Of a stretch of DNA of 64,000 bases, positions 56,195-58,065 are shown in pieces. A program made the position numbers and the translations under genes. The DNA lies in the NCBI RefSeq assembly GCF_003334355.1, contig NZ_QOWP01000005.1. The stretch is one strand, 5' to 3'. How positions within the stretch are numbered: the stretch's first letter is position 1; each line of letters begins with the position of its first letter. Below the pieces are notes generated by a model that had not been told where the DNA came from, did no database searches, and saw only the letters and a list, made by a program, of their open reading frames with translations. The DNA comes from Escherichia coli (lineage in GTDB: Bacteria; Pseudomonadota; Gammaproteobacteria; Enterobacterales; Enterobacteriaceae).

Positions 56195-56400
56195 TTTTCA
56201 TCCCTGCCACAATGGCCCGTTAGCAACGTCGAATAATTATTATGCGTGAGAATTTACGTTATGTAATTCAGTATCACGCCCATACAATCCGAATTTTAGT
56301 GAGAATTGTGGCTCAGACAGCCAAATCAGCCTCTTTTGCTTGTCGCTTTTCACTAAACATCCGACAATTTAGCCTAACCCCGGCAAAAATGGAGATGCCT

Positions 56401-57246
56401 ATGTCCACGACATGGTTTGTAGGAGCCGACTGGCTCGCCGAACATATTGATGACCCGGAAATTCAGATTATCGATGCCCGCATGGCGTCGCCTGGACAGG
56501 AGGATCGTAACGTTGCTCAGGAGTATCTGAATGGACATATTCCCGGCGCAGTGTTTTTTGATATCGAAGCGCTTTCTGATCACACTTCCCCGCTTCCGCA
56601 CATGCTGCCGCGCCCGGAAACGTTCGCCGTGGCGATGCGTGAATTAGGCGTTAACCAGGATAAGCACCTGATTGTCTATGACGAAGGTAATCTTTTCTCA
56701 GCCCCACGAGCATGGTGGATGCTGCGCACCTTTGGTGTAGAGAAAGTGTCGATTCTGGGGGGTGGACTTGCAGGCTGGCAGCGCGATGATCTGCTGTTAG
56801 AAGAAGGTGCAGTAGAGCTGCCGGAAGGAGAGTTTAACGCCGCGTTTAATCCTGAAGCCGTGGTGAAAGTAACCGATGTATTATTGGCAAGCCATGAAAA
56901 TACGGCGCAAATTATTGATGCCCGCCCGGCTGCACGTTTTAACGCAGAAGTTGATGAACCTCGCCCAGGTTTACGTCGCGGACATATTCCCGGAGCACTG
57001 AATGTTCCGTGGACGGAACTGGTGCGCGAAGGCGAACTAAAAACGACCGATGAACTGGATGCGATATTTTTTGGTCGCGGCGTCAGCTACGACAAACCAA
57101 TTATCGTCAGCTGCGGCTCTGGTGTAACGGCAGCCGTGGTTTTGTTAGCACTCGCGACGCTGGATGTGCCAAACGTGAAACTGTACGACGGCGCATGGAG
57201 TGAATGGGGCGCGCGGGCAGATTTACCGGTTGAGCCAGTGAAATAA
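56401..57246 (+). CDS. sseA: 3-mercaptopyruvate sulfurtransferase (rhodanese-domain protein)
   Basis: Track ORF 56242..57246; start at MSTTWFVGADWLAEHIDDPEIQIIDARM gives 281 aa; active-site CGSGVTA. Confidence 0.93.
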   Translation: MSTTWFVGADWLAEHIDDPEIQIIDARMASPGQEDRNVAQEYLNGHIPGAVFFDIEALSDHTSPLPHMLPRPETFAVAMRELGVNQDKHLIVYDEGNLFSAPRAWWMLRTFGVEKVSILGGGLAGWQRDDLLLEEGAVELPEGEFNAAFNPEAVVKVTDVLLASHENTAQIIDARPAARFNAEVDEPRPGLRRGHIPGALNVPWTELVREGELKTTDELDAIFFGRGVSYDKPIIVSCGSGVTAAVVLLALATLDVPNVKLYDGAWSEWGARADLPVEPVK

Positions 57247-57262
57247 GTATTTTACAGGCAAT

Positions 57263-57292
57263 AAAAAACCGCCGAATTTGGCGGTTTTTTAT
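57263..57292 (+). terminator. Intrinsic terminator after sseA
   Basis: aaaaaa-ccgcc-gaatttg-ggcgg-tttttt (A-run, hairpin, T-run). Confidence 0.7.
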
Positions 57293-57590
57293 TGCTAGTC
57301 TGGTTCGCGGCCTTTCCAGCAGGTTGACTTGTGTTACATGAGCAACGCAGGTGCTTCACAGCAAAACAATACTCACCAGTAACTCTCTTTTTGTCAAGCA
57401 AAAGAGAGTAATTATTGTTTATTTAGCGTATTATCGACACCGGCCCTTTCCGCCGTGTTCGGTAATAAAATAACCTGGCTTATTAGTCCGAATTCAGACA
57501 AATATAAACAAATCCTGCTCAAAATTAAAAATTCTAACCGGTAAAAGATATTACTTAAACATGTAAATTCACTTTCCTTTAAAAAACAAA
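57287..57590 (+). ncRNA. ryfA: RyfA-like small RNA region (copy 1 of a tandemly duplicated unit)
   Basis: About 300 nt bounded by two intrinsic terminators, no ORF over 20 codons with a credible start; contains the 10-bp perfect inverted repeat actctctttt/aaaagagagt. A RyfA sRNA is described between sseA and sseB in E. coli. Boundaries approximate; strand inferred. Confidence 0.4.
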
Positions 57591-57618
57591 AAACCGCCAA
57601 AATCAGGCGGTTTTTTGT
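57585..57618 (+). terminator. Intrinsic terminator between the two repeat copies
   Basis: aaaaaacaaaaaa-ccgcc-aaaatca-ggcgg-tttttt. Confidence 0.7.
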
Positions 57619-57620
57619 TG

Positions 57621-57790
57621 CTGGTCCGGTTCGCGGCCTTTCCAGCAGGTTGTATTACCGTAGTAATGCAAGCGCGTCTCAGCGGAGACAATACTCGCCA
57701 GTAACTCTCTTTTTGTCAAGCAAAAGAGAGTTATTATTGTTCTGTTAGTGTATTATCCACTGCGGCCCTTTCCGCCGTCTCGCAAACGGG
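57621..57790 (+). repeat. Second copy of the RyfA-like unit (direct repeat of 57296-57465, period about 325 bp)
   Basis: Shared blocks ggttcgcggcctttccagcaggtt, caatactc[a/g]ccagtaactctctttttgtcaagcaaaagagagt[a/t]attattgtt and cggccctttccgccgt in the same order and spacing as copy 1, with diverged stretches in between. Confidence 0.7.
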
Positions 57791-57907
57791 CGCTGGCTTT
57801 AGGAAAGGATGTTCCGTGGCCGTAAATGCAGGTGTTTCACAGCGCTTGCTATCGCGGCAATATCGCCAGTGGTGCTGTCGTGATGCGGTCTTCGCATGGA
57901 CCGCACA

Positions 57908-58033
57908 ATGAAGATACGGTGCTTTTGTATCGTACTTATTGTTTCTGGTGCGCTGTTAACCGAGGTAAATAATAACCGGAGTCTCTCCGGCGATAATTTA
58001 CTGGTGGTTAACAACCTTCAGAGCAGCAAGTAA
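57908..58033 (+). CDS. Candidate small hydrophobic protein (41 aa), possible type I toxin of RyfA/TimP type
   Basis: ATG 57908 to TAA 58031-58033: MKIRCFCIVLIVSGALLTEVNNNRSLSGDNLLVVNNLQSSK; hydrophobic N-terminal stretch, followed directly by a terminator hairpin. No strong Shine-Dalgarno. Speculative. Confidence 0.25.
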   Translation: MKIRCFCIVLIVSGALLTEVNNNRSLSGDNLLVVNNLQSSK

Positions 58034-58036
58034 GCC

Positions 58037-58065
58037 CGAATGCCGCCCTTTGGGCGGCATATTTT
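58037..58065 (+). terminator. Intrinsic terminator at the end of the RyfA-like region
   Basis: Hairpin atgccgccc-ttt-gggcggcat followed by atttt, immediately before the sseB stop on the opposite strand. Confidence 0.65.

Follow-up and report, generated by a model that had tools for sequence, protein, structure and literature searches.

Duplicated palindromes upstream of timP in Escherichia coli as probable cores of sigma-70 promoters for TimR/RyfB-type small RNAs

Introduction

The spacer between sseA and the timP/ryfA gene of Escherichia coli carries two copies of a perfect inverted repeat whose loop holds TTGACA on the minus strand, which raises the question of whether the feature acts as a promoter, as an RNA structure, or as a DNA site in its own right. 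A first-pass annotation of the window (the whole 64-kb stretch of DNA analysed here) had proposed a minus-strand promoter for an antisense, TimR-like RNA or a stable stem-loop within the sense transcript, and had taken the strict conservation of the repeat between otherwise diverged copies as a sign of function.

The timPR locus is a type I toxin-antitoxin system, in which TimR is divergent from timP and pairs through its 5' end with the timP 5'UTR (Andresen et al. 2020, PMC7667032). Repression of TimP by TimR was shown in Salmonella, and every enterobacterium examined, E. coli among them, was predicted to carry a TimR homologue upstream of timP (PMC7667032). In S. dysenteriae, divergent transcripts of ~100 nt, ryfB1 and ryfB2, were described upstream of each ryfA (Fris et al. 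2017, PMC5333039), and TimR was seen by northern analysis in E. coli CFT073 and CH138 (PMC13188913). An RpoD-holoenzyme SELEX peak also lies within the sseA-ryfA spacer (PMC3946193). The timPR/ryfA literature that was searched contains no description of the palindrome or of the timR promoter hexamers.

Materials and methods

The comparison set comprised 32 TimR units from 27 loci of E. coli (several allele types), E. albertii, E. marmotae, E. whittamii, other Escherichia, Salmonella, Citrobacter, Superficieibacter, Yersinia, Rahnella, and Erwinia. The S. flexneri locus (L135) was left out, as it carries scattered indels resembling assembly errors. The one Salmonella contig came from matching metagenome contigs to an exact TimR DNA pattern, while a TimP protein search gave Escherichia and Shigella only, and a scan of contigs for the timP stem-loop pattern was too permissive (14 of 120 loci enterobacterial). 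The 5' ends of the Salmonella TimR and timP RNAs were taken from the RNAs made from oligonucleotides, CTACGGTGTGCC... and GGCCCTTTCC..., respectively (PMC11228461 SI Table S2).

Results

The segment corresponds to the sseA-sseB interval of K-12-like E. coli, with the end of sseA at 57246. Rfam assigns ryfA (314 bits) and IS128 (262 bits) to the plus strand, and in RefSeq genomes that are 99-100% identical, timP is annotated within ryfA and is followed by sseB on the minus strand. The spacer from sseA to timP/ryfA holds a tandem duplication with a period of 322-326 bp, each copy of which contains first a terminator active in both directions, then a conserved GGCCTTTCCAGCAGG block and a stretch that has diverged, and lastly the 91-nt block with the palindrome, in which the copies are 90% identical. 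The two palindrome copies are thus the product of one evolutionary event, a tandem duplication. The coordinates of all features are collected in Table 1.

Table 1. Features of the sseA-timP/ryfA region and their positions in the window
Feature	Position	Strand	Remarks
TimR-1 sRNA unit	57260..57362	-	5' end by homology to Salmonella TimR; ~103 nt
TimR-1 terminator	57258-57295 (intrinsic terminator 57263-57290)	both	common to sseA and TimR-1
-10 GAGTAT of P(timR-1)	57369..57374	-	17 nt from -35
Inverted repeat, copy 1	57382..57409		10-bp arms, 8-nt loop; between TimR-1 and IS128 remnant
Promoter-like TTGTCA-16-TATTGT	57391..57418 and 57713..57740	+	overlaps minus-strand -35 by four bases
-35 TTGACA of P(timR-1)	57392..57397	-	in palindrome loop, copy 1
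IS128	57422..57630	+	Rfam RF00125; downstream of palindrome copy 1
TimR-2 terminator	57585-57619 (intrinsic terminator 57589-57617)	both	IS128 and TimR-2 converge
TimR-2 sRNA unit	57587..57684	-	5' end by homology; ~98 nt
-10 GAGTAT of P(timR-2)	57691..57696	-	17 nt from -35
Inverted repeat, copy 2	57704..57731		10-bp arms, 8-nt loop; pairing spans 12 bp, 57702-57733
-35 TTGACA of P(timR-2)	57714..57719	-	in palindrome loop
-10 TATTAT of P(timP)	57751..57756	+	7 nt before GGCCC
timP mRNA (= ryfA)	57762..58065	+	Rfam RF00126; TimP ORF 57908-58033

The two terminators of the duplication are symmetric, each consisting of an A-tract, a G+C stem, and a T-tract, and each is apparently used by transcripts that converge on it, those of sseA and TimR-1 at the first and those of IS128 and TimR-2 at the second. 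Weak sub-threshold Rfam matches to ohsC, OrzO-P, and AgrB are confined to these two terminators.

The 10-bp perfect stem and 8-nt loop described by the first-pass annotation were found at both places, and both copies read ACTCTCTTTT, loop TGTCAAGC (tgtcaagc), and AAAAGAGAGT, with 28 of 28 nucleotides identical. The 64-kb window has nine distinct places (21 nested hits) with a perfect inverted repeat whose arms reach 10 bp or more and whose loop measures 3-12 nt, compared with an expectation of ~1.1 hits per first-order Markov-simulated sequence; the other large inverted repeats in the window are mostly terminators. As a single strand, the palindrome would fold with -9.1 kcal/mol as DNA and -15.4 kcal/mol as RNA (z -7.0 in both cases). 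The identity of the copies is real, but it is a weaker sign of function than had been supposed, given that the enclosing 91-nt block is itself 90% identical and that, by our rough estimate made without a tool, such a block would contain a mismatch-free run of 34 nt with a probability of ~0.15. A kinship of the palindrome with the sequence upstream of sseA was also considered and rejected, the 12-nt match CTCTTTTGCTTG at 56331 being at chance level (4 matches vs 2.1 expected).

On the minus strand, both copies read cTTGACAaaaagagagttactgg(t/c)GAGTATtgt, in agreement with the TTGACA and the -10-like element 17 nt downstream that had been noted before. Compared with the sigma-70 consensus, the -35 matches TTGACA at 6/6 positions in both copies, the spacer is exactly 17 bp, and GAGTAT matches TATAAT at 3/6 positions, including the key -11A (A2) and -7T (T6). 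A simple promoter scan does not list P(timR), because its -10 matches TATAAT at just 3/6 positions. Downstream of GAGTAT, a variable 5' segment, a CUGGAAAGGCCGCGAACC block, and a strong intrinsic terminator follow in both copies. Both candidate units are ~100 nt long, lie on the minus strand upstream of and divergent from timP/ryfA, end in a terminator, and carry the same CTGGAAAGGCCGCGAACC as Salmonella TimR.

The comparison with Salmonella gives these units a reference 5' end, since the TimR transcript with which Eleftheraki and Holmqvist worked begins with CTACGGTG (PMC11228461 SI Table S2). On the TimR strand of the Salmonella contig, TTGACA is followed after 17 nt by GAGTAT and after a further 7 nt by CTACGGTG, while the opposite strand reads TATTAT, 7 nt, and GGCCC. 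The hexamers and the 17-nt spacing line up in a three-way alignment of Salmonella and the two window copies. From homology and hexamer spacing, we infer timR start sites at ~57361-57362 for TimR-1 and ~57683-57684 for TimR-2. Copy 2 of the palindrome would accordingly extend from about -21 to -48 of P(timR-2) and from about -60 to -33 of P(timP).

The promoter arrangement is widely shared. In 29 of the 32 TimR units, covering seven genera, the motif (A/T)GTCAA is separated by exactly 17 nt from a -10 that has A2 and T6, although the invariance at GTCAA and at A2/T6 is partly by construction because the motif search required those positions. The same motif matches 0.6% of shuffled segments, and its offset from the TimR 3' motif GGCCTT(T/C)CCAG is constant at 47-60 nt; both points speak against the conservation being an artefact. 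TTGAC(A/T) is found in all intact units (29/29), and in other genera GACTAT, CAATAT, or CAAAAT takes the place of the -10 at equal spacing. The three units without the motif are promoter-deleting alleles, in which the TimR seed is joined straight to the timP target.

Computed over 12 lineages, information content reaches 1.86 bits per position in the -35 and 1.55 in the -10, compared with 0.43 for the spacer and 0.45 for positions -36 to -47, which are the palindrome arm positions (0.43-0.46 over spacer and flanks). The first two plus-strand bases that complete TTGTCA vary among the taxa (TT, AT, GT, AA, CT, GA) while the minus-strand hexamer is kept, and because these two bases vary freely, selection acts on the minus-strand hexamer. 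The plus-strand TTGTCA was rejected as a selected element on the same variation.

Promoter-deleting alleles occur in E. coli 06-00048 (L128), E. marmotae (L129/L130), and Citrobacter amalonaticus (L098), where a deletion has fused the TimR seed region to the homologous timP 5'UTR target. The seed region and the timP target form direct repeats on the plus strand, and the deletion arose in three independent lineages. These alleles lack the two divergent promoters as well as the initial ~60 nt of timP, a loss that presumably silences the entire toxin-antitoxin locus. E. coli GF131 (L122) carries two complete timR-timP units of different specificity with an sseB fragment between them, a segmental duplication larger than that of the window.

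The arms of the palindrome are distributed very differently from the hexamers. The hairpin around the -35 is found in only one Escherichia allele type (type A), and the same 40 nt have near-zero folding energies in E. coli types B (as in O157), C, and D and in all other genera. No other allele is as common in E. coli as type A: of 5426 complete genomes, 3131 match the 60 nt surrounding copy 2 exactly, and 4869 contain a recognisable version. Among 11 distinct type-A alleles, five of the 12 stem pairs are broken by single substitutions, one pair shows A-T to G-T, and none of the 12 pairs is altered on both sides, while TGTCAA and ATACTC are invariant. E. whittamii has two uncompensated arm changes. 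The linked A/G and T/C differences in type-B alleles were dismissed as a covarying pair, as E. albertii combines A with C. The view of the inverted repeat itself as a conserved functional unit is not borne out, since the arms are unconserved beyond type A and accumulate uncompensated changes; the palindromic symmetry is most likely not under selection and an Escherichia-specific by-product.

The stable stem-loop in the sense transcript fares no better, because the palindrome sits wholly in the ~80 bp between the timR and timP starts (~57684 on the minus strand and ~57764 on the plus strand). It lies upstream of the starts of timP/ryfA, IS128, and TimR and downstream of strong terminators, the start sites around it being inferred, not mapped. 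No Rfam family above its gathering score covers the palindrome.

Type-B alleles carry a wider imperfect repeat, TACTCTCTTTTAT, 18 nt, and ATAAATAGAGTA, with the timR -10 flank as its left arm. Type A may be derived from an older wider imperfect repeat of this kind, made up of the timR -10 flank (ACTCTCTTTT) and AAA(T/C)AGAGTA upstream of the -35. The loss of ~11 nt between the -10 flank and the -35 would have drawn the repeat halves closer, and a new GAGTAT 13 nt further out would have brought back the 17-bp spacing. Such an origin by deletion, suggested by the allele comparison, would explain a perfect palindrome around the promoter without selection as a structure. Small palindromes also occur in other genera: Salmonella (L136, about 255-275) has CTCCCTT-TT-AAGGGAG in the timR spacer, overlapping the -10, and Citrobacter sp. 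(L097) has CTTTTC-N5-GAAAAG in the timR promoter spacer.

On the opposite strand, the timP start is placed at about 57764, from the GGCCC that is used as timP +1 in Salmonella. A -10-like hexamer is found at an about equally short distance (6-8 nt) before the GGCC start in other genera. In type B (e.g. L127, about 720-800), the flanks of the divergent -10 elements are alike in inverted orientation, GAGAGTAT for timR and GAGAGTATTAT for timP; this likeness concerns the Escherichia modules of types A, B, and D, in which a GAGTAA box also lies exactly 17 nt upstream of the timP -10. The inverted likeness and the GAGTAA box suggest that the timR and timP promoters may have been derived from an inverted duplication.

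IS128 opens with a timP-type -10 TATTAT (57429-57434) and the first ~15 nt of the timP 5' end (GGCCCTTTCCGCCGT, 57442-57456), beyond which unrelated AT-rich sequence extends up to the TimR-2 terminator. Other E. coli strains have this IS128 body behind a different, type C TimR promoter, with no timP-like start. The K-12-like arrangement is thus a recombinant remnant.

The two TimR units differ in their seeds. The TimR-1 seed GCUGUGAAGCACCUGCGUU (GCAGGTGCTTCACAGC type) pairs at 17 of 19 positions with the timP 5'UTR at 57825-57843, and the TimR-1/timP duplex reaches -49.7 kcal/mol over the extended interaction. The TimR-2 seed (GCAAGCGCGTCTCAG type) fits the timP target of the window at just 15 of 20 positions; because of this poor match to the adjacent target, the TimR-2 promoter may drive an orphan RNA. 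What the TimR-2 seed type does match is the timP target of E. whittamii and that of E. coli strains 2900 and PKF11. Escherichia has at least four seed/target specificity types, which are shuffled among strains, and in GPEC874 the distal TimR fits timP whereas the proximal one does not.

Discussion

The palindrome copies are very probably the cores of sigma-70 minus-strand promoters for TimR/RyfB-type small RNAs, with the symmetry itself not selected. Sequence comparison strongly supports the reading as a minus-strand sigma-70 promoter of a TimR-like antitoxin RNA: a TimR-type unit directly follows, the arrangement matches Salmonella, and it recurs in seven genera. That part of the first-pass annotation stands, although TimR is not an overlapping antisense transcript: it is divergent from timP and pairs in trans with the timP 5'UTR. 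The palindrome loop would provide the perfect -35 TTGACA of timR, the left arm a portion of the 17-bp spacer, and GAGTAT the -10, with timR transcription beginning 7-8 nt past GAGTAT. The right arm would lie upstream of the timR -35, at roughly -38 to -47 of P(timR), and overlap the weak -35 region of P(timP), so that the two promoters would stand back to back within ~80 bp. Each RNA of ~100 nt is predicted to pair through its 5' seed with the timP (ryfA) 5'UTR and to end at the bidirectional terminator. By analogy with Salmonella, where the role has been established experimentally, TimR would stop translation of the small membrane toxin TimP.

The main competing explanations take either the symmetry or the plus strand as the functional element. 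An operator for a dimeric regulator, or a cruciform element, coordinating or toggling antitoxin and toxin transcription in Escherichia type-A loci is very unlikely. A perfect symmetry of 10-12 bp is improbable by chance and falls exactly in the back-to-back divergent promoter region, with its centre at about -33.5 of timR (its -35) and about -46.5 of timP. The 60-nt allele is identical in more than half of the complete E. coli genomes, a loop change in the Escherichia allele L134 extends the stem to 11 bp, and H-NS is listed for the sseA-ryfA spacer (PMC3946193). The small palindromes in the timR promoters of Salmonella and Citrobacter might be added to these points, but they stand at differing positions, unlike a shared operator. 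The arms are unconserved in E. coli types B, C, and D and in other genera, half-sites are not kept at a fixed spacing, and the five single substitutions that break pairs are uncompensated, E. whittamii included; no candidate protein or motif match was found. Stems of 10 bp with a loop as long as 8 nt make poor cruciform substrates. The more specific proposal, that the palindrome of the dominant allele is a DNA-level control element (an operator or extrudable hairpin) making the firing of the antitoxin and toxin promoters mutually exclusive, is very unlikely; if true, a type I toxin-antitoxin system known so far only under post-transcriptional control would gain a transcriptional toggle.

It is highly improbable that the plus-strand TTGTCA-16-TATTGT is the relevant promoter, giving a longer timP or IS128 transcript, and that the minus-strand match is incidental. 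This plus-strand element had been predicted as a promoter of IS128 and of ryfA, it matches the promoter scan at 9/12 in both copies, the Rfam start of IS128 (57422) lies just downstream of the copy-1 TATTGT, and Shimada et al. (2014) gave this 'constitutive' motif to the ryfA RpoD SELEX peak (PMC3946193). However, neither the TATTGT box nor the TT of TTGTCA is conserved among allele types and genera, in which the minus-strand hexamers are kept; a conserved -10 (TATTAT or its equivalents) stands 6-8 nt before the timP GGCCC in all taxa; Salmonella timP RNA is taken to begin at GGCCC; and SELEX is too coarse to split promoters 30-60 bp apart. The published ryfA promoter assignment may be wrong, because the conserved timP -10 is 11 nt further downstream, and the assignment of the RpoD peak to the plus-strand motif (PMC3946193) may reflect the timR -35 read on the wrong strand. 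The plus-strand motif could still serve as a minor extra promoter, compatible with P(timR). The least probable reading, and one we consider extremely doubtful, is that the hairpin acts on the plus strand as a weak back-up terminator or RNA structure, stopping read-through from sseA or IS128 before IS128 or timP. A permissive scan does list both copies on the plus strand, with a stem of 10-14 pairs and the T-rich tail ATTATTGTT, and the RNA fold is stable, but the stem has three G-C pairs, the U-tract is interrupted, and strong canonical terminators already lie ~90-120 nt upstream of each copy. The hairpin is also missing from other allele types and genera that share the gene order, shows no compensatory changes, and is covered by no known transcript.

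The putative timR promoters and genes of the window have a close counterpart in Salmonella timPR (timR = STnc2070), which is likewise divergent, non-overlapping, and upstream of timP, has TTGACA-17-GAGTAT before the RNA 5' end, and shares the CUGGAAAGGCCGCGAACC module and the intrinsic terminator. In contrast to Salmonella, the window unit is duplicated, the -35 is enclosed in a perfect 10-12-bp palindrome that Salmonella lacks (it has its own 7-bp palindrome in the spacer), and the timP-adjacent copy fits the local timP worse than the distal copy. The ryfB1/ryfB2-ryfA1/ryfA2 locus of S. dysenteriae also consists of two tandem units, each with a divergent small transcript of ~100 nt upstream of a ryfA-type gene, and its units differ in pairing specificity, as in the window (PMC5333039). 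Unlike in these siblings, the first ryfA-type gene of the window has shrunk to the IS128 remnant, and for this reason the window has two TimR/RyfB genes with differing seeds and one timP. In tisB-istR1, shoB-ohsC, zor-orz, and dinQ-agrB, the antitoxin sRNA likewise comes from its own divergent promoter and pairs with the toxin 5'UTR (PMC7667032), although these belong to separate sequence families.

Within a system already described, a promoter ahead of the sRNA gene is to be expected, and the feature is known in kind. The palindrome itself would be of consequence only if it were a regulatory site, and the comparative data speak against that. What the analysis sets is the exact coordinates of the promoter hexamers of two E. 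coli TimR/RyfB genes, which are the sole strongly conserved bases of the divergent timR-timP control region. These coordinates can be used for reporter fusions or clean deletions, as a deletion of the 'intergenic' region takes out both promoters.
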